A stretch of DNA of 64,000 nucleotides from Candidatus Cloacimonadota bacterium. GTDB taxonomy: Bacteria > Cloacimonadota > Cloacimonadia > Cloacimonadales > Cloacimonadaceae. Both the position numbers and the translations under genes were made by a program. Below are positions 1 to 10,689 of this stretch, in pieces; the first letter of the stretch is position 1, and every line of letters starts with the position of its first letter. The notes beneath the pieces are model-generated. The model was not told where the DNA came from. It was given only the letters and a program-made list of their open reading frames with translations, and searched no databases. Where the stretch lies: the NCBI GenBank assembly GCA_023421135.1, contig JAEZUG010000026.1:1155-65154 (forward strand), written 5' to 3'.

Positions 1-248
1 AACATCAGATGCATCATCATATTCCCTAAAAGCGAGATCTTTTCCCCCTGCATCGAGTCTACTACCAGGACTCGGTAATCGGCATTGAAGGGATGAAGCA
101 GCACCTGCTGGCGCTGGTGATCGAACTTGATACGTTTCAGGGTGATGCCATCATTCAATCTGACAGCGCAGACATAGCCATCGGTATTGCTCCAGTCATC
201 CTTTCTCTGGATCACCACGATGTCGTTTTTCATGATCTGAGGCTCCAT
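1..248 (-). CDS. mini S24/LexA-like peptidase-domain protein, copy 1 (3' end runs off the window; start ATG 248, alternative in-frame ATG 323)
   Basis: My minus-strand translation is MEPQIMKNDIVVIQRKDDWSNTDGYVCAVRLNDGITLKRIKFDHQRQQVLLHPFNADYRVLVVD... It parallels the lambda CI/LexA C-terminal domain (MEP of the G-x-S-M-x-P motif, LKR general-base Lys, LxPxN). It has the same GAGGAAGG RBS as copy 2. It is absent from the ORF track because the window edge truncates it. Confidence 0.55.
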   Translation of the reverse strand, partial: MEPQIMKNDIVVIQRKDDWSNTDGYVCAVRLNDGITLKRIKFDHQRQQVLLHPFNADYRVLVVDSMQGEKISLLGNMMMHLM

Positions 249-271
249 AATCCTTCCTCGGACATACTTTC
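1..271. repeat. direct repeat, copy 1 of the mini-S24 gene plus RBS/leader (pairs with 2712-2984)
   Basis: Hand alignment of 31-271 against 2743-2984 gives about 23 mismatches in about 241 nt (roughly 90% identity). Similarity continues more weakly to position 1. Confidence 0.8.
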
Positions 272-664
272 TATTAAATGACACCCAAAGTGTCAGACAG
301 CGACCAGTATGACAAATCGGCATAAACCTTTATCCGGTGCAGAGATGCTTAGGACTGCATTCGGAAAGATGTCACAGTGGTTTTGGACTTCTTTGGACTG
401 GTTTGTGACAGCTTTGTGTCAAATCTGGACTGATTTCAGACAGATTTCGGAACTGGCTGAGTCTCAACGAAATAGACCAGTTGGAAAGACTCGCAGTGTG
501 AGTGGATTCGAGTCATTTTAAATTAAATGTCAACTCTGAAATACGTCTTAACCCTCTACTAAAAAATCTTTGGACTCAGGCTCTCAAAAAAATTTATGCA
601 TCAATCTGTCTATTGGGATTATTGCATTTAATCGAAACTCGAATAATTAAATGGGGACATAATC

Positions 665-922
665 TCACCCTTTGTACTCAAGGATACCTATTCTCGCCAT
701 AGCCTGTTTGAATCTCGTTTCATTGAAGTTGTGAATCTCATCCAAGACTGCGCTTCCATTACCGACAACGAAATATATCTCCTTCTTAACTACTTTGTAT
801 GTAACGCTTTCTGGACTGTCGAGATCAAACAATTTAACTTCCTCGGGACATAACATTGTGAAGTCACTAAACTTTGGCTGAAAGATAAGAATCAGTCGTT
901 TGCATGACGTCACAAAAATCAA
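665..922 (-). CDS. hypothetical small protein (85 aa from TTG 922; GTG 913 may be the real start)
   Basis: ORF-track ORF in the low-GC cassette, 7 nt after the stop of the 75-aa ORF. AGGAA lies too close to TTG 922 but about 10 nt from GTG 913. No recognisable motif. Confidence 0.35.
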   Translation of the reverse strand: MIFVTSCKRLILIFQPKFSDFTMLCPEEVKLFDLDSPESVTYKVVKKEIYFVVGNGSAVLDEIHNFNETRFKQAMARIGILEYKG

Positions 923-929
923 ATTCCTG

Positions 930-1157
930 CTATATGAAATTGGGATAGTTTTTTAAGGCAGACTTCACACCTTTAATAATGGACACTATTCCAAAGTGAG
1001 TTCTAGATAGACTCTGTTTTTTTGAAAAGCAATCAAGTAATATTTCGTCACTTTTCATCATATCCATCAACTTAGCCTGAATACTGTTTGAAAAATCTCC
1101 GATGTTTACTCCAATTCCTTTTAACTGCTGCACTAGATAATCACGAGTGACTGACAT
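930..1157 (-). CDS. hypothetical small protein (75 aa)
   Basis: ORF with a perfect AAGGAG RBS about 6 nt upstream of ATG 1157. Low-GC cassette. No recognisable motif. Confidence 0.5.
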   Translation of the reverse strand: MSVTRDYLVQQLKGIGVNIGDFSNSIQAKLMDMMKSDEILLDCFSKKQSLSRTHFGIVSIIKGVKSALKNYPNFI

Positions 1158-1418
1158 AACATCTCCTTTAATAGTATGAATTTACTTGTATCTTTTTTTG
1201 CTCCAAAATATACTATATATGACACTCAAGCCACATAAATTCTATACTCTGATGATCGCTATATGACCTAATACTTTTCTTATGAAATAACAGCCAAACT
1301 ACATAGAGTGATTTATATTCTGAAGCAAGAATTTTGTCAATGATATTATACGCACTTGCAAAACTCGTTAACTCATTACAGATCTTTCCTATCTTAATTT
1401 CAGTAACTATGCTTGCTT

Positions 1419-2696
1419 CTAATGGATGGTTGCATCTAAGCTTATTCCCTTTTGTTCGCATGTAACAACATGGCTTCCATTAGTCAAACGATTGATTTCT
1501 TTAAGTGTAACTTGATCAGGATGACCATAGCGATTCCCGTTTGAGCAAGATGTATAGGCATAATCAGGGCTGTAGTAACTTAGGAACTTGGCATTGTAAC
1601 CAGTATTGCTGCAATGATGGGTGACCTTGTAGTACTTTGTACGTTTGTTAGTTAAGTTGCATTTGCTTCCGAGAAACCCATCAATCTGCTCCCAACCTGC
1701 ATCTCCTGGCAGAAGAAGATGTGATTTCTTAGTAACCACATCCATTATTATTCCATGATGATTTTGGTCTGATGAGTTAGCTTTGTTAGCTAGATTACTT
1801 GCAGCAACCAAGCAAAAACCAAAACCACTTTTTGTTCTGGATTCTGTACCTCTGAGCTCGTAGAGAATGTTTCTGTCACTTGCTTCTCTTAGAAGTTTAA
1901 GAGCAGTCGTAGTCTTACCGACTGGCGTATGGCAGAATATAACAGCATTGGGTTGTAAAGTAGTGATGATTTTTTGAGCACTCATGATATGATCATAGTG
2001 CAAATGTGAGATTATGAATCTCTCAATGAAGAATTCAGGATATTTTAGGTAAAGCCAATCATAAAATTCCGATTCACAAATAGCATTCTTATACTGATTT
2101 GAATGCAGATACGCATCAATAAGCCAGATTCTATTTCCTGGGAATCTAAGAACTATTGTGTCCCCTTGTCCTACGTTCATTACGTGGAGATTAATTTGAG
2201 GATGCTGAAGAAACTCAAGGTCAGATATCAGGTCTGATTCTGGAATCACCTTATTTTTAACTTTATCGATAATTTCCTTGTATTCTTTTTCAACAGCTTT
2301 CTCAATTTTTCTATTACGATTGACTGATGCCAATGTGTCATCATTTAGATACCATATGTTCTGCACTTGGCTATTATGTGAATTAACGTATTCTCTTTTT
2401 AGCCCAGGATGATTCCACTCTACCTGAAAAGCTCTTCCACTGCTTAACAATCCATCATCATCAGAAATGAAACTCGCATGACTGACTAGGTTCTTATCTG
2501 CTAATAAATATCGCACAGGTACTCGAACCTGATCATCGACATTAACTAGTTTGATCCAATAACCACTTTCGCTCAGTTTCTTATCCACTCCTGATTTCTC
2601 ACTTACTGGGAATACATCATCTACTATCCAAGTATCTTGCCAGGATTGAACATCAATGTACTCCATTATAGTCTTAATATAATTACTTACTGCCAT
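1419..2696 (-). CDS. MBL-fold metallo-hydrolase (ComEC/Rec2-related type) with an uncharacterised ~170-aa N-terminal domain
   Basis: 425 aa. Motifs: VMNVGQGDTIVL, ISHLHYDH (HxHxDH, nt 1989-2012), LLPGDAG, KVTHHCS, RYGHPD. GAGGA RBS upstream of ATG 2696. AT-rich codon usage unlike the neighbouring genes. Confidence 0.75.
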   Translation of the reverse strand: MAVSNYIKTIMEYIDVQSWQDTWIVDDVFPVSEKSGVDKKLSESGYWIKLVNVDDQVRVPVRYLLADKNLVSHASFISDDDGLLSSGRAFQVEWNHPGLKREYVNSHNSQVQNIWYLNDDTLASVNRNRKIEKAVEKEYKEIIDKVKNKVIPESDLISDLEFLQHPQINLHVMNVGQGDTIVLRFPGNRIWLIDAYLHSNQYKNAICESEFYDWLYLKYPEFFIERFIISHLHYDHIMSAQKIITTLQPNAVIFCHTPVGKTTTALKLLREASDRNILYELRGTESRTKSGFGFCLVAASNLANKANSSDQNHHGIIMDVVTKKSHLLLPGDAGWEQIDGFLGSKCNLTNKRTKYYKVTHHCSNTGYNAKFLSYYSPDYAYTSCSNGNRYGHPDQVTLKEINRLTNGSHVVTCEQKGISLDATIH

Positions 2697-2706
2697 TTGT
2701 ATATCC

Positions 2707-2961
2707 TCATCCCATCCTCAGCTGCATCACCATCGTCCCTATCAGCGAGATATCTTCTCCCTGCATCGAATCTACTACCTGGACTCGGTAATCAGCATTG
2801 AAGGGATGGAGTAGCACCTGCTGTCTCTGGTGATCGAACTGGATACGTTTGAGGGTGATGCCATCATTCAATCTGACTGCACAAACAGAGCTATCGGTAT
2901 TGCTCCAGTCATCCTTTCTTTGGATAAAAACGATGTCGTTATTCATGATCTGAGGCTCCAT
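2707..2961 (-). CDS. mini S24/LexA-like peptidase-domain protein, copy 2 (84 aa, nucleophile Ser absent)
   Basis: MEPQIMNNDIVFIQ...CAVRLNDGITLKRIQFD...LLHPFNADY...LIGTMV matches the lambda CI/LexA C-terminal fold pattern. The in-frame upstream context is stop-KYIRGRI-MEP, so Ile replaces the catalytic Ser and there is no HTH domain. GAGGAAGG RBS lies directly upstream of the ATG. Confidence 0.6.
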   Translation of the reverse strand: MEPQIMNNDIVFIQRKDDWSNTDSSVCAVRLNDGITLKRIQFDHQRQQVLLHPFNADYRVQVVDSMQGEDISLIGTMVMQLRMG

Positions 2962-2984
2962 AATCCTTCCTCGGATATACTTTC
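2712..2984. repeat. direct repeat, copy 2 of the mini-S24 gene plus RBS/leader (pairs with 1-271)
   Basis: See the hand alignment described for copy 1. Similarity ends about 25 nt upstream of the ATG (CATAATCCTTCCTCGGAYATACTTTC). Confidence 0.8.
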
Positions 2985-3473
2985 AAATCCATTTATTGTA
3001 TTGAACTACATTATCTCAATTGCGTCATTATTTGTCAAGATCAATGCACCCATTTCATTGGGTGATCTTGACTGATCCAGGAAAGATACATCATCTCATC
3101 TTGATTGGTCCCTTGAGACAGGCACAGCGAAGAAAAATCTCTTGCTTCAAAAAATTGATAAAGAGGCAGTTACGTATATGAGGAAAAGATTCCACAGCAA
3201 AGTGTCAACCAACTGACGAAAGTGTCCCCTATATATAAGTAAGGGGTACATTGCAGGAAGTCAGGTTCTGATAATGGCTCAGTGGATCGTTTTTCCAGCG
3301 AGCTGGATTGTCGATAGGGCAACAATGCGTGTATCTTTTAGATTAGCACGGCAATGGTGTAAACCAGGGCTCACACAACATTCTATATCACGGTACTCGC
3401 CACGGAGCGGATTCAGAAGCTGCATTGTAAGTGAAAGAAAATGACGAAGATAAGCTAAGTGTACATAAAAAAC

Positions 3474-3503
3474 TTGACAGTAACTGTAAATTTGTTTTAC
3501 AGT
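3474..3503 (+). promoter_or_regulatory. putative promoter (TTGACA -35, TACAGT -10) overlapped by the inverted repeat ACTGTAAA-N5-TTTACAGT
   Basis: TTGACA at 3474-3479, 18-nt spacer, TACAGT at 3498-3503. Perfect 8-bp arms at 3483-3490 and 3496-3503. AGAGGTGA RBS and ATG 3536 follow. Confidence 0.35.
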
Positions 3504-3535
3504 GCCATGTAAACAGAAGTGCGAAAGAGGTGATT

Positions 3536-6500
3536 ATGCCAGAACGCTTGATGCACAAGATGCATAGTTTTGTTCAGGACAGATTCCCGCTCTCCAAGGT
3601 GATTGGGGTGCTCAGTGACAAGAATAGTAGCCACCTTTTGGAGATCACGGGAAAATCGGGATCGGGGAAGTCTTATTTAATTGCCCCAATGCTGGAGGCT
3701 TTGAAGGATAGCTATAGCAAGATTGAGTACTTCTCGCCCAATCCTCTCCGTTACAATCATTTCAGGGATGTAATCAAGATTCTGACGGATATTGAGGATC
3801 AGAAGCTCGAGGACTTGCTGCTTACTCATCAGAAGGATTACAGCACAGGGAAGAGGTACGATTTTTATTACTATATCACCGAGCAATTGCTGCAGGGCAA
3901 GCACTTTCATCAAATGCTGCTGGTGATCGACGATTGTGATGTGCTGGATCATTATACCAGGGACTTTCTGCAGTATTTGGTGCAATATACTGAGGATCTG
4001 GGAGTGCAGATTGTCGTCTTTTCGCAAAAGCGTCTCTTCAGCTTCTCAATCTTGGAACAAGTGCCTTCTGCCAGCGTGGATGAGATTCAAAAGTTACTCA
4101 CCCAACTCTTTCCCCAAACAGACTTTTCTTATGTAAGCGAGAGTGAGATACTCTGCCGGATCAGCGATGGCAATCTGATGATCATGGAGAGGATTCTCAT
4201 GGAGATGCTGAAAGGGAAAAATAAACCCGTCTTTGATCTCAGTCCCTATTTGGAGCGCTCTTTCAATGCAGTTCAGATCTACCACGAAGCTTTGGAAAAG
4301 CTCAGTAAAAGCCAAACTGAGATACTGATCGGTCTCTTTGCTTTGGATGGTCTGGATGAAGAAGGCTTCAAACAAAGCCTGGGAACCGGCAAGACAGCCG
4401 AGAAAGACCTGAACGCTCTATTGGATCTGGGTTTGGTGAATCTGGTTAACCACAGGTTTGTCATTCAAAAGAAGAATGCCTTTTCTGAATGGCTAAAAAA
4501 CAACCCTGGAGTGCTCTCTTCAGCCCTTTTAGTTAAGATCATCAAGCAACTCAGCAAAGATGATGCTACCGGGCAAGTATTGGCCAGGCTGCATTCTCTG
4601 GTTGGCACTTATCCAGAAGAGCTCTTTTTGGGGCTAATGCACCAGTTGGGACTGATCTGTGATAATGAGAATATGATTGCGCTCTTCGAGTATGCACTCA
4701 AGAATACTAAAGAGCCCGAAGCGATGCTAGAGCTCAACCTGAGAATGGGCAGAGCCTTCTCGGATAACAACGAAAAGGACAAGGCCGTTGATTTCTTCCG
4801 CAAGTGTCTGCATATCTGCAGTGAAAACGATCTCCCGGCCGAAGAAGTGATCTTCCAACTTGCCAGTACCCTTTTTGAGATCAATTCATCTGCCTTTGCT
4901 CTGGAGATCATCAAAAAGTACTCACCTTCCACTATAGATCCCTGGATGAAAGTGAGAATCCGTATGCTGAAAGCTGATATCCTGGTAGAATCTGAGGAGT
5001 ATGAGGAGGCTATCCAAACCATCGAAGCAGTGATGCACTCTCTATCCAGCCTGGAAAACAAACTACACAGGTATCTTGCTCAAGCTGAGGCCAAGAAGAT
5101 CAAAGGTAAGATCCATTACTACGTGAATGAATGGGATCAGGCTGAGATAGCCTTCAAAGATGCAGAAAACATGTATCAACTCGCTGAAGACCAGAAGGGT
5201 CTGGCTGCGATATCAAACAACCTGGGTGTGCTATATATGTTCCAGGGTGATTGGGAGAAGAGCGAATACTGCTTTCTCAGAAGTCTTGCCATCGAAAAAG
5301 AGATTTACAACCTTAATGGCATCTCGGTTTGTTACAACAATCTGGGTGGTTTGATGGACGATAAAGGCGATCAGCTCCGTTCCATCTCTTATCTGGAAGA
5401 AGCACTCAAGATTCAGAAGTTGCTCAATGAGCCCTATAATATCTCAAATATATATAATAACATCGGGATTACCCTGATGGATCAGGGGCAATACGCTCAA
5501 GCCGAGGAAGTGCTGGTTAAATCCCTGGAAACGGCTACGGATTTTAACTTTTTCAGGCATATAGTAGCATCTCTTAATAACCTTGGAGCGCTTCACTTTA
5601 AGAAGGGCAATTGGAATCTCTCAATCAGCTATTACGAGCAGGCCATCAGCAAAAGTCAGGAGAATAGCTTCAATGAAGGCCTGCTGAGATCCTTTAATAA
5701 CCTGGGTGAAGTCTATGAGAAACAAAACGAACTAAACTTGGCTTATGATCTCTATTTCAAGGGGCTGGAGCTCTTGAGCACTGTCTCTGATGATTATATC
5801 AAGGCAGAGCTCTATGGTAATCTGGGCTCTGTGCTTACCAAGCTCCACAAGTTCAAAGAAGCCTATGGCTATCTGGTGGAGAGCTTTGATTTCTTCAAAT
5901 CCCTCAATGCCCGTGATAAGATAATGGAAGGATGCCAGAAGCAGGCTTACTACTTTATACTGACTCATAATCTTGAAAGTGCGGATTACTATCTGAAACA
6001 GGCCATGAAGATGGCTCATGAACAGAATCATCCCTTCGAGATTGGCAGATCTTTCTACCTACGGGCACTACTGGAACGTAAGGATCTGGAATCTGCCAAG
6101 ACAAACCTGGAGGAGTCCATCAAGATGTTTGTGCAGACAGGGAGCAGTTACGAGCTTTCTCTGGCAAACTACGAACTGGCTTCGGTTCTCTTTGAGATGA
6201 AGGAATGGGAACCAGCTCTGCAGATTCTGAAGAATAACCGCAAGATCATCCAGGAGTATGGCTCGATTAAGCTGTTGGAACAGAATGATATACTGTTGCA
6301 GAAGATATCCCGGGAGTATTCTGCTCAGATGCAGGACATCAAGTTTGAAGAAAACCTGCTGAATCAATTCTATGAGATCACGCAGAATCTGAACACTCTC
6401 ACCGATTTAGATGTCCTAATCGAGAATTCTCTTTCCAGCCTGATTGAGCTCTCGGAAGCTGATGGAGGAATGCTCTGCCTGCATGAAAGCAGTACCTTGC

Positions 6501-7822
6501 CGGGTTCCTGGGAGTACAAGCTGTATAAGGGTACTTCTCCGGACGATAAGAATCACAGCATCTTCATGGATCTGTGCCATCAGGTTTACAACAGCAAGAA
6601 GCTGGAAAACTACAAACAACCTCACTTTGCACCTGATTACAACAACATCCTCATCTTGCCTTTATCTATCCGCAAGAACACACTGGGCGTGGTTCTGCTC
6701 TTTAGCACCAGCGGAGCTCATTATTTCTCTGAAAGGATAATCAATCTCCTGAGCGCTCTTACCAATCAGGTGATTGTGATCATAGAAAATATCCGCAGTG
6801 CCAATCTGGAAAAGACCCACGCTGTGATCCGTGAGCAGCTCAATTCCAATAACCTCTATGCCAATATCATCGGCACCAGTCCAGAGATGCAGAAGATCTT
6901 TGAGATCATCGAGAAGGTGAAGGATACGCCCACCTCAGTGCTTTTGGAAGGTCCTAGCGGAACAGGAAAGGAACTCATTGCCAGAGCTCTGCACTTTAGC
7001 AGCAACAGGAGCAATAAGTCTTTTGTCGCCCAGTACTGTGGAGCTTTGCCGGAGACACTGCTGGAAAGCGAACTCTTTGGACATGTGAAGGGTTCGTTCA
7101 CTGGAGCAGCCTATGATAAGAAGGGACTCTTTGAGATAGCCGATGGCGGAACCTTCTTCCTGGATGAGATAGCCGATATCAGCCAAAGCACTCAGGCCAA
7201 GCTTCTGCGCTTCTTACAGGAAGGCGAGATCAAGAGAGTGGGCGCCACCAAGACGGAAAAGGTGAATGTGCGTGTGGTCTGCGCCACGAACGTGTCTCTC
7301 CTGGATAAAGTCAAAGACGGTTCATTCCGGCTGGATCTGTACTACCGACTGAACGTGATCAAGATTGAAGTGCCTCCCCTCAAAACCAGAAAGGGGGACA
7401 TCCCTCTCTTATCAGTTCACTTTCTGGATAAGTATAATAAACGCATCAATAAGTCCGTGGTTGGCATCTCTGATGAAGCCATGAAGATCATGGAAAACTA
7501 TGACTGGCCAGGTAATGTGCGCCAGCTTGAAAATGAAATAGAACGCGCCGTGACTCTGGCGGAGAACAATAGCTTCATCAAGCCCTCAGATTTCTCTGAG
7601 GAAGTGCGGAAGTATATCGAAAACGTGCAGACCATCAAGCTGCTGAATAGCAAGCGATCGCTGAAGGATGCCATTGAAGAATTGGAACGCAAGCTGATAA
7701 CTGAAAGTATGGAACAGAACCAATGGAACCAAACTCAGGCAGCCAAGGAACTGGGTCTCTCCCGGCAAGGCTTGATTAAGAAGCTTAAGAGATATAACCT
7801 ATACAAGGAAGAAGAAGCTTGA
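3536..7822 (+). CDS. giant sigma-54-dependent transcriptional activator: N-terminal P-loop (AAA_16/STAND-like) NTPase + TPR array + GAF + sigma-54 AAA+ domain + Fis-type HTH
   Basis: Walker A GKSGSGKS (3650-3673) and Walker B LLVIDDCD. Repeated xNNLGxxYxxxGxxxxAxxxxxxAL TPR units (about 5040-6250). GAF-like block (about 6370-6800). bEBP core: GPSGTGKE (6950-6973), ESELFGH, GSFTGA (7091-7108), FLDEI, NVRQLEN. C-terminal QAAKELGLSRQGLIKKLKRY. The ORF track starts at GTG 3431, but the RBS and promoter favour ATG 3536. Confidence 0.85.
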   Translation: MPERLMHKMHSFVQDRFPLSKVIGVLSDKNSSHLLEITGKSGSGKSYLIAPMLEALKDSYSKIEYFSPNPLRYNHFRDVIKILTDIEDQKLEDLLLTHQKDYSTGKRYDFYYYITEQLLQGKHFHQMLLVIDDCDVLDHYTRDFLQYLVQYTEDLGVQIVVFSQKRLFSFSILEQVPSASVDEIQKLLTQLFPQTDFSYVSESEILCRISDGNLMIMERILMEMLKGKNKPVFDLSPYLERSFNAVQIYHEALEKLSKSQTEILIGLFALDGLDEEGFKQSLGTGKTAEKDLNALLDLGLVNLVNHRFVIQKKNAFSEWLKNNPGVLSSALLVKIIKQLSKDDATGQVLARLHSLVGTYPEELFLGLMHQLGLICDNENMIALFEYALKNTKEPEAMLELNLRMGRAFSDNNEKDKAVDFFRKCLHICSENDLPAEEVIFQLASTLFEINSSAFALEIIKKYSPSTIDPWMKVRIRMLKADILVESEEYEEAIQTIEAVMHSLSSLENKLHRYLAQAEAKKIKGKIHYYVNEWDQAEIAFKDAENMYQLAEDQKGLAAISNNLGVLYMFQGDWEKSEYCFLRSLAIEKEIYNLNGISVCYNNLGGLMDDKGDQLRSISYLEEALKIQKLLNEPYNISNIYNNIGITLMDQGQYAQAEEVLVKSLETATDFNFFRHIVASLNNLGALHFKKGNWNLSISYYEQAISKSQENSFNEGLLRSFNNLGEVYEKQNELNLAYDLYFKGLELLSTVSDDYIKAELYGNLGSVLTKLHKFKEAYGYLVESFDFFKSLNARDKIMEGCQKQAYYFILTHNLESADYYLKQAMKMAHEQNHPFEIGRSFYLRALLERKDLESAKTNLEESIKMFVQTGSSYELSLANYELASVLFEMKEWEPALQILKNNRKIIQEYGSIKLLEQNDILLQKISREYSAQMQDIKFEENLLNQFYEITQNLNTLTDLDVLIENSLSSLIELSEADGGMLCLHESSTLPGSWEYKLYKGTSPDDKNHSIFMDLCHQVYNSKKLENYKQPHFAPDYNNILILPLSIRKNTLGVVLLFSTSGAHYFSERIINLLSALTNQVIVIIENIRSANLEKTHAVIREQLNSNNLYANIIGTSPEMQKIFEIIEKVKDTPTSVLLEGPSGTGKELIARALHFSSNRSNKSFVAQYCGALPETLLESELFGHVKGSFTGAAYDKKGLFEIADGGTFFLDEIADISQSTQAKLLRFLQEGEIKRVGATKTEKVNVRVVCATNVSLLDKVKDGSFRLDLYYRLNVIKIEVPPLKTRKGDIPLLSVHFLDKYNKRINKSVVGISDEAMKIMENYDWPGNVRQLENEIERAVTLAENNSFIKPSDFSEEVRKYIENVQTIKLLNSKRSLKDAIEELERKLITESMEQNQWNQTQAAKELGLSRQGLIKKLKRYNLYKEEEA

Positions 7823-10689
7823 GCTCTGATACATCTGAACAAAAAGTAGAATCTCTGGATAGCATCCTGAATTTCGTCTCCCTGGATATCGAGACCACGG
7901 GCTTGGATACACGCAGGGATGAGATTATTCAGATAGCTGCGATCCGATTCACTGCGGGAAAGAAAACAGAAGTCTTTGATAGCTTTGTGAAACCCAATGC
8001 TAAGGTGCCCACTTTCATCAAAGCTCTTACTCACATCTCATCGGAAGATCTAAAGAATGCTCCGGATATTAAGGCTGTTCTTCCCAAGCTTCTGGAGTTC
8101 ATTGGTGATTCTGTGATAGTAGGCCAAAATATTGCTTTTGATTTGGGGTTTATTGATGAGAATCTGATACGTATGGGCAAGTTTCCCATTCGTAATCAGA
8201 GATGGGATACGGCCGAGATCGGCAGGGTTTATCTGCCATTCATCAATAATCACAAGCTGGGAACCATGTGTAGAGAGTTTTATATAGTGCTGGATAATGC
8301 TCATCGGGCAGACGCAGATGCTGTTGCCACCGGAGAGCTGCTTTGCCACCTGAGTCATCACATCTACGATCACTATAGTCTGGTGCTCAACGCCAGACTC
8401 TTGGATCTTGCCAAACAGGCCAAGCTGGAAGACAGCCTATATCACTATCTGTATAAACTAGTCGAGTTTCAAAGACATTATGCTTTGATTGGTAAGAAGC
8501 CTGAGCCACCTGAAAACAAGCTGGTTAACGTCATCGATCATCAGATTCCGGGCAATGGAGTAGCGGATATTGAGAACGTCTTTGGTCCTTCCGGAATATT
8601 CTCCCAGCGCTTTGAAAACTATGAATTCAGAAGTGGCCAGCTAGAGATGGCCAAACACATTGCTCTGGCTTTTGAGCAGGAACATCATCTGGCAGTGGAG
8701 GCAGGCACGGGAGTGGGGAAGTCTTTTGCATACTTGGTTCCTGCCATGCAATATGGACTGGATAAACGTACCAAAGTTTTGATCTCTACCAACACCAAGA
8801 ACCTCCAGGAACAGCTCTTCTTCAAGGATATACCAGCTCTTCGCAAGATCATCCCCATCCCCTTTAAAGCATGTTTGGTAAAGGGGAGGGACAATTATAT
8901 CTGTGAACGGCGTTGGAATGAGTTGCTGAGCGACCAGAGCAAAGGCTATACAGATTATGAAGCACATGCTTTACTCTATCTGGTGGTTTGGAAGCAGCTC
9001 ACTCACACAGGAGATATCTCGGAGAATTCGTCCTTCGATCGCAGCCGGTTCAGCTTTGTGTGGAGAAAAGTATGCTCAGATCGCTACCTCTGTGGAGGAA
9101 GAAGATGTCCGCTCAATAAGAGCTGCTATCTGATGAAGCTCCGTAAGGATATTGAGGACGCCAGTATAGTGGTGGCCAATCACTCTTTGCTTCTGGCTGA
9201 TATGCAGACCGATAACCAGAGCTTGGGAGAATATAGCTATCTGGTAGTAGATGAGGCTCATAACCTAATGGCTTCTGCTGCTCGTCTTTTGGGCTTTGAA
9301 CTCGGCTATGTGGATTTGAATTCTCTGCTTCAGCAATTGGGTAGCTCTCATCGCAGGCAACACACAGGCTTTTTGAGCCAATTAAACAGGGCAGTTGAAA
9401 AGAGTCTCTGCCCGGATGCTGTGAAGACACAGATGAGCTCACTGGTCAAGAATGTGGAGAAGAATATTGAGTTTCTTCGCAAACCTCTGCAGGACATGTT
9501 CAATGAGGCTGGTCGGATAGTTCTCCAGGCAGATAGCTTTGGAAAGTGCAGGATAAAGACTCAAGGACAGTATCCTGCTTTAGACGAGAAATTGCTTAGT
9601 GTAAGGAACACCTGGAAATCCCTGGTGAAAGATCTCACGGCTATAAGCAATGTGCTCAGCACTATCAAAACGGGTGTTCTGGCTCAATATGAGAACTATG
9701 TGGAAAGCCTGTCTTCCTTTGGTGCTCGCATGTCTGAAATCGAACAATCCATGATGATACTCCTGGATCCAGATCTGGATAACTATGCTCTGTGGTTGGA
9801 AAACAATGGGGGAGACCGGAATACACCCTCAGCGGTTATCTGTTACGCACCAGTTGAGGTGGGAGAGCATCTCAACCGGATTCTTTACAAAAATGTCCGA
9901 AGCATTGTCTTTACATCAGCCACTCTCGCTTTAAGAGGTTCTTTCAAGTTTTTCAAGGGACAGAGTGGCCTTAATCTGGTGGAGGATGGTAAGCTGGTTG
10001 AGGAGATAGTGGATTCTCCTTTTGACTACGATAAACAGTCACGTCTCATGATCAGCAGCTTCTTACCAGAACCCAAAGACCGTTTCTTTGGGAATCAAGC
10101 CCTGGCCTGTCTGGAGCAGATAGTAACATCGGTCAATATCGGTACCATGGTACTTTTTACTTCCTATAAGGACCTGAACCAGGTTTTCGAGCACCTTTCA
10201 GATGTGTTGTATCAGAACAACCGCAGTTTCTTCGCCCAGGGTAAAGGCTCCAGCCGTTCATCTATTCTGAGTGAGTTTAAACAGGTGGATAATGCAGTAC
10301 TCCTGGGCACCAGTTCATTTTGGGAAGGGGTGGACATTCAAGGTAAGTCACTATCACTTCTTATTCTGTACAAGCTGCCCTTCATGGTGCCATCCGAACC
10401 AGTCGTGGAAGCTTATATCGATAAATTGGAACGAGAGCAGAAAGACTCCTTCATGTACTATATGTTGCCCAATGCACTCCTGAGATTACGCCAGGGCTTT
10501 GGCAGACTGATCAGAAGTAAGAGTGATACTGGTATAGTGTTAATAATGGATTCCAGAGTCTCTACCAAGAAGTATGGTAGTTATTTTAAAGAAGTATTAC
10601 CTTGTCAAAGTCGTGAGTTCCAATCTGAACAACAGCTCTTTAGTGAAATCGCTGCCTTTTTCAGAAACCAAGAAACGGAAGACAAATGA
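7819..10689 (+). CDS. dinG: bifunctional DnaQ-like 3'-5' exonuclease / DinG-family ATP-dependent DNA helicase
   Basis: Exonuclease motifs SLDIETTGLD and HRADADA. Helicase motifs AGTGVGKS (8701-8724), VVDEAHNL and a C-terminal GRLIRS. Cys cluster C-x~70-VCSDRYLCGGRRCPLNKSC suggests an XPD-type Fe-S domain. TTG start overlaps the upstream TGA stop. Confidence 0.85.
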   Translation: MSSDTSEQKVESLDSILNFVSLDIETTGLDTRRDEIIQIAAIRFTAGKKTEVFDSFVKPNAKVPTFIKALTHISSEDLKNAPDIKAVLPKLLEFIGDSVIVGQNIAFDLGFIDENLIRMGKFPIRNQRWDTAEIGRVYLPFINNHKLGTMCREFYIVLDNAHRADADAVATGELLCHLSHHIYDHYSLVLNARLLDLAKQAKLEDSLYHYLYKLVEFQRHYALIGKKPEPPENKLVNVIDHQIPGNGVADIENVFGPSGIFSQRFENYEFRSGQLEMAKHIALAFEQEHHLAVEAGTGVGKSFAYLVPAMQYGLDKRTKVLISTNTKNLQEQLFFKDIPALRKIIPIPFKACLVKGRDNYICERRWNELLSDQSKGYTDYEAHALLYLVVWKQLTHTGDISENSSFDRSRFSFVWRKVCSDRYLCGGRRCPLNKSCYLMKLRKDIEDASIVVANHSLLLADMQTDNQSLGEYSYLVVDEAHNLMASAARLLGFELGYVDLNSLLQQLGSSHRRQHTGFLSQLNRAVEKSLCPDAVKTQMSSLVKNVEKNIEFLRKPLQDMFNEAGRIVLQADSFGKCRIKTQGQYPALDEKLLSVRNTWKSLVKDLTAISNVLSTIKTGVLAQYENYVESLSSFGARMSEIEQSMMILLDPDLDNYALWLENNGGDRNTPSAVICYAPVEVGEHLNRILYKNVRSIVFTSATLALRGSFKFFKGQSGLNLVEDGKLVEEIVDSPFDYDKQSRLMISSFLPEPKDRFFGNQALACLEQIVTSVNIGTMVLFTSYKDLNQVFEHLSDVLYQNNRSFFAQGKGSSRSSILSEFKQVDNAVLLGTSSFWEGVDIQGKSLSLLILYKLPFMVPSEPVVEAYIDKLEREQKDSFMYYMLPNALLRLRQGFGRLIRSKSDTGIVLIMDSRVSTKKYGSYFKEVLPCQSREFQSEQQLFSEIAAFFRNQETEDK

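Follow-up and report, generated by a model that had tools for sequence, protein, structure and literature searches.

Within a 64,000-nucleotide stretch of DNA from a Cloacimonadota bacterium (the window, by which we mean the whole stretch that was analyzed) lie two short and closely similar genes whose products comprise only part of an S24 domain, the domain that forms the C terminus of LexA- and CI-type repressors, and which begin exactly at the catalytic motif and lack its nucleophile. The question raised by this locus is whether such genes encode small regulators in their own right or are what remains of a larger gene. The first-pass annotation favored the former, taking a conserved ribosome-binding site and an intact reading frame in two diverged copies as signs of an expressed, catalytically dead S24 domain acting as a dimerization decoy, an anti-repressor or a sensor partner of the effector encoded downstream. 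Our analysis favors the latter: we estimate the probability at about 85% that the two 84-aa open reading frames (ORFs) are vestigial 3' ends of a CI/LexA-like repressor gene, left behind as transposon remnants. The features of the window that bear on this question are the following.

1-248, minus strand: S24 remnant copy 1, cut by the window edge; a ChaN-like cargo gene (341 aa) comes next, outside the window
249-271, minus strand: the 23-nt leader again, here directly abutting the tip of the putative transposon end
272-506, minus strand: putative repressor-proximal transposon end ('elt'), 235 nt, with its tip ...TTTGGGTGTCATTTAATA at 272
665-1461, minus strand: three small ORFs (1213-1461, 930-1157 and 665-922) with no family match, making up the rest of the cargo slot
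1419-2696, minus strand: cargo gene for an MBL-fold protein of 425 aa that resembles the ComEC C-terminal, LmuA and Avs1a nucleases
2707-2961, minus strand: S24 remnant copy 2, an 84-aa ORF corresponding to codons 159-242 of the transposon's XRE-S24 repressor
2962-2984, minus strand: 23-nt junction or leader GAAAGTATATCCGAGGAAGGATT, which carries a Shine-Dalgarno sequence and has no homology to the parent gene
2985-3210, minus strand: region U, upstream DNA specific to this lineage, containing a terminator-like hairpin and a predicted sigma-70 promoter
3431-7822, plus strand: gene for a sigma-54-dependent activator with TPR and AAA domains, the chromosomal flank

The descriptive part of the earlier account holds well. 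Both ORFs start at the Met that directly follows the catalytic Ser position, and in each of them the preceding codon specifies Ile. Translation of the in-frame codons upstream of copy 2 gives K-Y-I-R-G-R-I, confirming the R-G-R-I that had been read there with Ile in place of Ser, and a stop codon lies 8 codons before the ATG. The copy 2 protein (84 aa, MEPQIM...QLRMG; MEPQIMNNDIVFIQRK...TLKRIQFDHQRQQVLLHPFNADYRVQVVDSMQGEDISLIGTMVMQLRMG) matches positions 45-116 of the 116 in the Pfam Peptidase_S24 profile (PF00717; E 8e-11, above the gathering score) and positions 127-197 of the 203 in the LexA model TIGR00498, and the C-terminal parts of the NCBIfam LexA and UmuD models match it as well. Missing from both window ORFs are the nucleophile Ser (G-x-S-M), an Ala-Gly (or Cys-Gly) cleavage site and an N-terminal HTH domain, together with about 45 S24-domain residues that precede the Ser. 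The general-base Lys is kept in both copies in the TLKRI context previously noted; this residue, K38, is equivalent to K196 of the full-length parent described below and aligns with K156 of LexA, while the missing Ser corresponds, via the same parent, to parent S158 and LexA S119. The two copies are 88.5% identical over 278 nt, in agreement with the earlier figure of about 90%, and their homology begins 23 nt 5' of the ATG and is absent further upstream. Copy 1 leaves the window two codons short of its stop, and a second contig (L058, 100% identical) contains the complete 84-aa ORF. The population is present in anaerobic-digester samples, for example ERZ27268864. PADLOC matched nothing for the S24 ORF or the small ORFs. 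AlphaFold2 models had a pLDDT of 53 for the 84-aa ORF and of 37 for a 132-aa variant, low values that stem from a shallow alignment and are hence uninformative on foldability.

A full-length parent of these ORFs was found via genomic contexts (for example L002:7035-7778 and L018:6259-6987). It is a protein of 242-247 aa that consists of an XRE HTH domain (HTH_3/HTH_19), a linker and an S24 region with the motifs AEISAG, GQSMEP and TLKRI. Its alignment to E. coli LexA pairs A119-G120 with A84-G85, S158 with S119 and K196 with K156. An exhaustive HMMER search recovered P0066, a 242-aa allele that matches copy 2 at 96% amino acid identity over its last 84 residues; nucleotide identity between copy 2 and several full-length alleles is 87-90%, including 87% to positions 475-719 of the full-length gene in L002. 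A word-indexed protein search returned only 31 close relatives (>70% identity), all from Cloacimonadota-type metagenomes, which have a constant C terminus and lengths ranging from 50 to 143 aa, the longer ones including PLMAEISAGMP and NGQSMEP. The 90%-identity cluster to which copy 2 belongs has 261 members of 40-244 aa. The promoter of the full-length repressor gene contains a palindrome, CCTGACTAATCAGG.

The genomic setting of the parent points to a mobile element. A scan of one genome per GTDB species yielded 25 loci, 15 of them full-length, with several copies per genome. Most are in Cloacimonadota metagenome-assembled genomes (MAGs), and 7 are in MAGs binned to other taxa, on contigs of 2-7 kb. 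In the 15 full-length loci, as well as in several metagenome loci, the order is a core, a promoter, the XRE-S24 gene, cargo and an end. Wherever the flank of a full-length locus reaches far enough, the repressor gene is divergent from a transposase operon, the exception being L025, in which the first gene of the operon is reduced to a 47-residue stub. The products of this operon are an HTH protein of 197 aa, a MuA/TnsB-like DDE transposase of 683 aa (rve and Mu-transpos_C) and a TniB/MuB-like AAA+ protein of 228 aa (AAA_22/TniB), and the operon is followed by a gene for a small winged-helix protein where the flank extends further. Based on this gene content, the parent appears to be the repressor of a Mu/Tn7-like family of DDE transposons that is present in multiple copies in Cloacimonadota. 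Between the repressor gene and a conserved 235-nt end is a slot of 0.9-2.6 kb that holds unrelated genes and, in most loci, begins directly at the S24 or repressor stop codon. The cargo is mostly of defense type (AbiLi/AbiLii, Old, a methyltransferase with DUF1848, HEPN with DUF4238, MBL), and ChaN-like and S41 proteins are also found. A full-text literature search gave no description of this family, an apparently undescribed one that combines a LexA-like repressor with a slot for defense cargo between the repressor gene and the element end.

The window contains one copy of this end. Its 235-nt elt is 85-97% identical to sequence that in more than 25 loci lies 0.9-2.6 kb past the repressor gene, and ends ...GGGGTGTCACTTTATA in related loci. 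It holds repeated GTCC(A)AA and TGTCAC motifs, and more AGACTnnTTTCAGA repeats extend leftward from it, in the window to about position 560. Past the tip, sequences are unrelated among loci; several short contigs terminate within about 100 nt of the elt; and its last 27 nt recur in inverted orientation at the left ends of four loci (L044, L036, L002 and L034). From the divergence at the tip, the contig ends and the inverted 27-nt match, we interpret the elt as the repressor-proximal end of the transposon. An Rfam scan of window positions 1-3600 (E<=1) assigned no RNA family to the 235-nt element. The DDE transposase, its AAA+ partner and the terminal inverted repeats are features of related loci only, and the window itself has one end and no transposase. 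Taken together, the alignments show the two ORFs to correspond to 3' parts of the transposon repressor gene, collinear with its cargo slot and its end.

Read on the minus strand away from the activator gene, the window presents region U, the leader, copy 2, the MBL gene, the three small ORFs, the transposon end, the second leader, copy 1 and the ChaN-like gene. This arrangement is most readily interpreted as two decapitated right arms of the transposon, stacked head to tail in tandem and still carrying defense genes. The position of the stack is shared with other strains, in that remnants adjoin an orthologous sigma-54 activator gene in L004, L010-13, L044-45, L048, L051-52 and L058; the intergenic region upstream of the activator thus appears to be a recurrent insertion site of this transposon family. 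What lies beside the activator ortholog varies: a 132-aa remnant and an MBL gene in L004; a restriction-modification system, then a 129-aa remnant, then an AAA_23 protein in L010; a left end and a solo decayed remnant in L044; and in L048 a 53-aa ORF with only about 30 S24 codons, accompanied by an MBL gene. In another locus, L047, the order is end, U, leader, copy-1-like remnant and ChaN-like gene, and the MBL module is absent. Given its absence there, the MBL arm would seem to represent a gain or loss between two S24 repeats.

The conserved ribosome-binding site that had been cited in favor of an expressed gene is real: the Shine-Dalgarno sequence GAGGAAGG is contained in the 23-nt leader GAAAGTATRTCCGAGGAAGGATT that is common to both copies. 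The parent gene has AATGGACAAAGC at the position before the corresponding ATG, unlike the leader, and we rejected the idea that the leader is diverged parent sequence, as per-position identity is near random in the leader versus about 88% in the ORF. The leader is limited to the window, L001, L047 and L058-61. Because it is confined to this single lineage, its presence before both copies reflects shared descent and not convergence. An exact-match scan of JGI metagenome contigs for the junction CCGAGGAAGGATTATGGAGCC found no occurrence.

Upstream of the leader of copy 2, region U contains a terminator-like hairpin (3064-3047) and a near-consensus sigma-70 promoter (TTGACA-17-tgnGATAAT, 3038-3010) about 50 nt 5' of the ATG. 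This predicted promoter probably drives both copy 2 and the MBL gene. Since it is strong and so close, expression of copy 2, as the first-pass annotation proposed, is plausible, and would probably serve mainly the downstream MBL nuclease gene. The sole homolog of U, at 95% identity, is L047:869-1117, where an intact transposon end abuts U. A search for an intact or left transposon end upstream of U in the window gave only a degenerate tip-like sequence, TTGACACTTTGCT, at about 3201-3213, and a weak resemblance to left ends, neither of which we count as a feature. Homology of U to the DNA upstream of other remnants (L044, L048, L036 and L056) was likewise rejected, the only common element being the promoter-like CTTGACAAAT.

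If the window ORFs are transposon debris, related loci might be expected to contain the same gene cut at other places, and this is what we observed. Truncation points in relatives form a continuum, with endpoints in the promoter (positions 22, 52, 93, 106 and 112) and throughout the gene (positions 308, 325, 332, 400-406, 470, 474, 517, 559 and 592). The same cargo is found behind intact and truncated repressor genes: AbiLi/AbiLii is preceded by a full-length copy in L025 and L029 but by a fragment in L037, and for HEPN with DUF4238 the corresponding loci are L002 (full-length) and L028 (fragment). Decay is also evident, with five stop codons in the L043 fragment and a frameshift in a full-length copy in L018. 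Among the possibilities set against its own proposal, the first-pass annotation had listed 3' fragments of one rearranged full-length repressor gene, and it is to such fragments that the parent, the collinearity and the truncation continuum point.

The coincidence of the ORF start with the catalytic motif can be understood in the same terms. The Met of G-x-S-M is the first usable start codon once the 5' part of the gene has been lost or frameshifted, and because this Met is conserved, gene callers restart truncated S24 genes at the post-Ser position. Three predictions illustrate this: the 84-aa P0001 represents the end of a full-length gene that has suffered a frameshift; P0104 belongs to a distant S24 lineage and retains FRVNGHS before its start; and P0075 (L056) is a remnant abutting a related transposon end. 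Junctions within a few nucleotides of the Met do occur in the window lineage, in L037, in L044 and in the sister family represented by L056. We nevertheless attribute the apparent truncation hotspot at this codon to ascertainment, since only one of about seven fragments is of such type in an ORF-independent tblastn set.

Substitution patterns provide a further line of evidence. With the 15 full-length alleles as reference, pN/pS measured against the full-length consensus is higher in fragments (0.14) than in full-length copies (0.06; Fisher odds ratio 2.26, p 4e-6), and replacements at positions invariant among full-length alleles are about 4 times as frequent in fragments (5.8%) as in full-length copies (1.5%; Mann-Whitney p 0.008). 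The pooled p-values are optimistic as alleles and fragments share ancestry, and some of the loci were gathered by protein (ORF-based) searches, which favor intact ORFs. Because the excess pN of fragments (0.029) is close to their excess pS (0.031), these data suggest that change after truncation has been roughly neutral. Copy 2 is too young to show decay, differing from the consensus by 4.5 nonsynonymous and 12.5 synonymous changes, of which one replacement is private to it. In copy 1, four replacements fall on positions that do not vary among full-length alleles. As for dN/dS between the two window copies, proposed earlier as a check, its low value has a source other than selection on the fragments: Y25, K41 and E69, which differ between the copies, are already present in the full-length allele L029, so that the low ratio was inherited from functional parents.

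The sequence of events by which the stack arose can be proposed in outline. A single truncation event would have made the junction between the leader and Met159, and a later element with MBL cargo could then have recombined with the resident remnant through their S24 homology. Such unequal homologous recombination would have duplicated the leader-remnant unit and removed the transposase module of the newcomer, leaving arms devoid of a transposase module and of repressor codons 1-158. Recombination between the direct repeats might delete the MBL arm again, giving the L047 state, and more generally the S24 3' end and the transposon end may serve as conserved anchors for cargo exchange. Since both copies share the 23-nt junction but differ in cargo, a single truncation followed by unequal recombination is the most economical history, one that we infer rather than reconstruct.

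The peptides themselves cannot be proteases or RecA-responsive substrates, and in themselves are most likely functionless; at most, the copy 2 ORF may act as a leader whose translation carries ribosomes to the MBL gene along with transcription from the U promoter. A stronger form of this idea is that the remnant has been exapted as a cis-acting leader ORF whose translation is needed for cargo expression (by coupling or by unmasking of a ribosome-binding site), such that the peptide is irrelevant and the frame is kept open. The local geometry is suggestive, as the MBL gene starts 10 nt past the copy 2 stop and its Shine-Dalgarno motif, GAGGA, lies inside the last S24 codons. Comparable junctions exist elsewhere: in L048 the MBL start codon and the remnant's stop overlap in the sequence ATGA, in L002 the first cargo gene overlaps the stop codon of the full-length repressor gene, and the start of the cargo slot exactly at the S24 stop codon in most loci fits as well. 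However, in many loci the first cargo gene is 80-130 nt downstream or, as in L019 and L042, on the opposite strand, and coupling is therefore not general. We regard exaptation of this kind as unlikely.

The nature of the MBL gene is relevant to the proposal that the S24 protein acts as its partner. Its matches to ComEC C-terminal, LmuA and Avs1a nucleases are all below family thresholds, with the LmuA and Avs1a matches being partial, and the LmuB SMC-like protein and the Avs1 STAND NTPase that partner these nucleases are absent from the MBL module. Two of the three small ORFs are called as genes in L058, and all three are absent from the L002-type MBL module. Homologous MBL cargo is found behind a 132-aa S24 remnant in L002-L009, and close homologs overall follow remnants of 132 aa, 84 aa or about 30 codons (L048, where the peptide was read directly from the DNA), while distant homologs are located between hsdS and hsdR in type I restriction-modification operons that have no S24 gene. 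As the MBL gene follows remnants of variable extent and its distant homologs do without S24 altogether, we rejected a specific S24-MBL partnership, and with it the suggestion that the S24 protein is a sensor partner of the MBL effector.

More broadly, the original proposal was of an expressed and selected Ser-less S24 protein that serves either as such a partner or as a dimerization decoy or anti-repressor against full-length XRE-S24 proteins. Lambda CI and LexA dimerize through their C-terminal domains, which makes a dominant-negative effect biochemically conceivable, and full-length repressors, the possible targets, are abundant in the same phylum. Copy 2 has a strong promoter and a Shine-Dalgarno sequence upstream, and the frame is intact in all three known versions of the 84-aa form (copy 1, copy 2 and L047). 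In addition, copy 1 and L047 differ with a pN/pS of about 0.19, which would suggest constraint if all differences had arisen in place. These differences are clustered, however, and the nearest relative of the first third of the copy 1 ORF is the full-length allele L029 rather than L047; this indicates that copy 1 probably underwent gene conversion, which confounds the ratio. Both copy 1 and L047 also have radical changes (Q61L, V78M, Q80H and R82M) at positions that are invariant in 15/15 full-length alleles. Copy 1 further lacks the promoter of copy 2, a transposon end abutting its leader, and the ORF lacks the roughly 45 S24 residues N-terminal to the Ser. The relaxed constraint on the pooled fragments, the restriction of the common leader to one lineage, the continuum of truncations (with remnants of 132 aa, 84 aa and about 30 codons all preceding MBL homologs) and the lack of an S24 neighbor for distant MBL homologs likewise argue against a selected protein. 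We consider it improbable that the window ORFs were retained as decoys or partners, and of the earlier interpretation retain the possible expression of copy 2.

A related and equally doubtful idea is that HTH-less S24 proteins derived from this repressor have been domesticated as regulators of the adjacent defense cargo. The best candidates may be the widespread 132-aa form, an in-frame deletion that keeps the native promoter, the Ala-Gly site, the Ser and the Lys, and possibly its 84-aa derivative in the window. If this were true, such proteins might act as a self-cleaving switch triggered by RecA*/ssDNA, or as dominant-negative partners of incoming repressors through which DNA damage or an invading transposon would switch on the MBL nuclease. 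Finally, while contigs of this family often break at these repeats, we give almost no weight to an assembly or binning artefact in which a chimeric contig joins two strains at the repeat, as L058 is 100% identical to window positions 1-3600, the two-copy arrangement recurs in at least 4 independent assemblies, and the copies differ at 11.5% of positions and are thus not collapsed repeats.

The reading of the ORFs as vestigial repressor ends has consequences for annotation. Small ORFs called 'S24 peptidase' or 'LexA' in Cloacimonadota MAGs would be scars of transposon repressors and not SOS regulators or new mini-proteins. As markers these scars may be useful, since each flags the start of a former transposon arm, and here they delimit a defense-gene hotspot beside the sigma-54 activator gene. 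If the repressor is RecA-responsive, the element would link DNA damage to expression of the transposase and the cargo, which is not unusual for mobile elements. The finding itself is of an ordinary kind, a by-product of the turnover of mobile elements, and its transposon and defense-island context is interesting but conventional.

Comparison with known systems places the protein and the element in different relationships to what has been characterized. Relative to LexA, lambda CI and UmuD (MEROPS S24, PF00717), the homology of the window ORFs covers the C-terminal two thirds of the catalytic domain and includes the Lys. The LexA-type set of Ala-Gly site, Ser and Lys is complete in the parent, whereas the window ORFs, unlike characterized S24 proteins, have neither the Ser, the cleavage site, the N-terminal strands of the domain nor a DNA-binding domain, and cannot work like any of them. 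The element resembles the early region of phage Mu, in which the c repressor is divergent from ner-A-B, and Tn7/Tn5053-type TnsB-TniB transposons with defense cargo. The common features are a repressor gene near one end that is divergent from genes for an HTH protein, a DDE transposase and an AAA+ protein, terminal inverted repeats, a multi-repeat end, defense cargo and stacked remnants left at an apparently preferred chromosomal site. This likeness to Mu and Tn7 is based on genes and ends in related loci, the window having no core genes. The repressor differs from that of Mu in being of XRE-S24 (LexA/CI-like) type and not Mu c; unlike Mu and Tn7, the element has its cargo slot between the repressor gene and the end, and the flanks examined contain no phage structural genes and no recognizable TniQ/TnsD.

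At the level of the site, the locus is comparable to the gene remnants of tandem arrays of integrative elements and of defense-island hotspots, such as stacked Tn7-like elements at att sites or P2/P4 hotspots with conserved genes at their flanks: conserved anchors, here the S24 3' end and the transposon end, flank interchangeable defense cargo, older arms are truncated from one side and a site by a conserved chromosomal gene is reused. It differs from these in that the anchor on the left is supplied by the repressor gene of the element itself, through its 3' end, and every decapitated arm consequently begins with an S24 fragment that is annotated as a small 'LexA' or 'S24 peptidase'.

Beyond the window, we identified a multicopy Cloacimonadota transposon family that carries an XRE-S24 (LexA-like) repressor and is apparently undescribed. 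The loci concerned (L numbers, related Cloacimonadota or metagenome loci) are as follows.

L002:2899-9852, L018:2169-9305, L021, L023, L032 and others, all outside the window: multicopy transposon
L036:785-3118 and L044:5846-6258: mini-elements
L002:10001-10399, L004:10001-10399, L034:762-1152 and L035:9999-10413: repressor variants of about 132 aa that carry in-frame deletions

The core of the transposon consists of a wHTH protein, a TniB/MuB-like AAA+ protein, a 683-aa MuA/TnsB-like DDE transposase and a 197-aa HTH protein. The repressor gene is divergent from this core, with a palindrome, CCTGACTAATCAGG, between the -35 and -10 elements of its promoter, and is followed by a defence-cargo slot of 0.9-2.6 kb and then by an end of 235-300 nt.

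Several loci carry parts of this arrangement. The L036 mini-element, about 2.1 kb in total, comprises a left-end inverted repeat, a gap of about 150 nt, an S24 fragment, cargo and the right end, and is joined tip to tip with the end of another element; it looks like an internally deleted derivative that is possibly non-autonomous. L044 contains a left end and a solo decayed remnant. The arrays at L029:3347-7115 and L028:1411-9616 consist of two or three directly oriented transposon ends with different cargo between them, in some cases without any remaining S24 fragment, and show that right arms have been repeatedly stacked and eroded.

Truncation of the S24 gene near the same Met codon is also seen elsewhere. 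At L037:1055-3009, a transposon end adjoins a DUF262/GmrSD-like gene that has lost its 5' part. At its 3' end this gene runs into an S24 remnant, and the junction lies a few nt 5' of the Met codon, here mutated to TTG. This junction is independent of, yet close in position to, the junction in the window. L056:894-1400, from a sister S24 lineage (42% amino acid identity), repeats the pattern of the window, with an 84-aa remnant that starts from the same Met and is immediately followed by a related end with GTCCAAAA repeats.

The surroundings of the S24 remnant in the window (copy 2) comprise the following features.

3431-10689 (+): chromosomal flank gene pair
3010-3064 (-): terminator-like hairpin, then a near-consensus extended -10 promoter
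1419-2696 (-): 425-aa MBL-fold protein, with distant homologues at L053:5001-6245 and L055:1697-2974
665-922, 930-1157 and 1213-1461 (-): three small ORFs that separate the MBL gene from the transposon end

The flanking pair encodes a large sigma-54-dependent activator (an AAA_16/TPR/GAF-like region, Sigma54_activat and HTH_8) and, in an overlapping gene, a fusion of a DinG-like helicase with an RNase T-type exonuclease. In every related genome examined, this pair is conserved beside the variable island. The promoter (TTGACA-17-TG-GATAAT) lies immediately 5' of copy 2, and in L044 and L048 similar CTTGACAAAT(A/C)AT boxes occur 76-80 nt 5' of the remnant ORFs, within non-homologous surrounding DNA.

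The N-terminal region of the MBL-fold protein (about 160 aa) matches no family. Genes for distant homologues of the protein (32-35% identity) lie inside type I restriction-modification operons, flanked by hsdS and hsdR, which suggests a restriction-modification-associated or defence nuclease family. The three small ORFs gave no Pfam, NCBIfam or PADLOC match; the MBL module of L002, although homologous in other respects, lacks them, and two of the three are called as genes in L058.

The deletion variants of about 132 aa, which trace back to no fewer than two or three separate deletion events, include P0003 (24 contigs) and P0182 (30 contigs), and their pN/pS of 0.08 is at the level of the full-length genes. 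As candidates for a functional S24 protein without an HTH, they are stronger than the 84-aa ORFs. They have lost the HTH and linker but retain the native promoter and start codon along with the Ala-Gly site, the Ser and the Lys, and so resemble UmuD as stand-alone S24 proteins.
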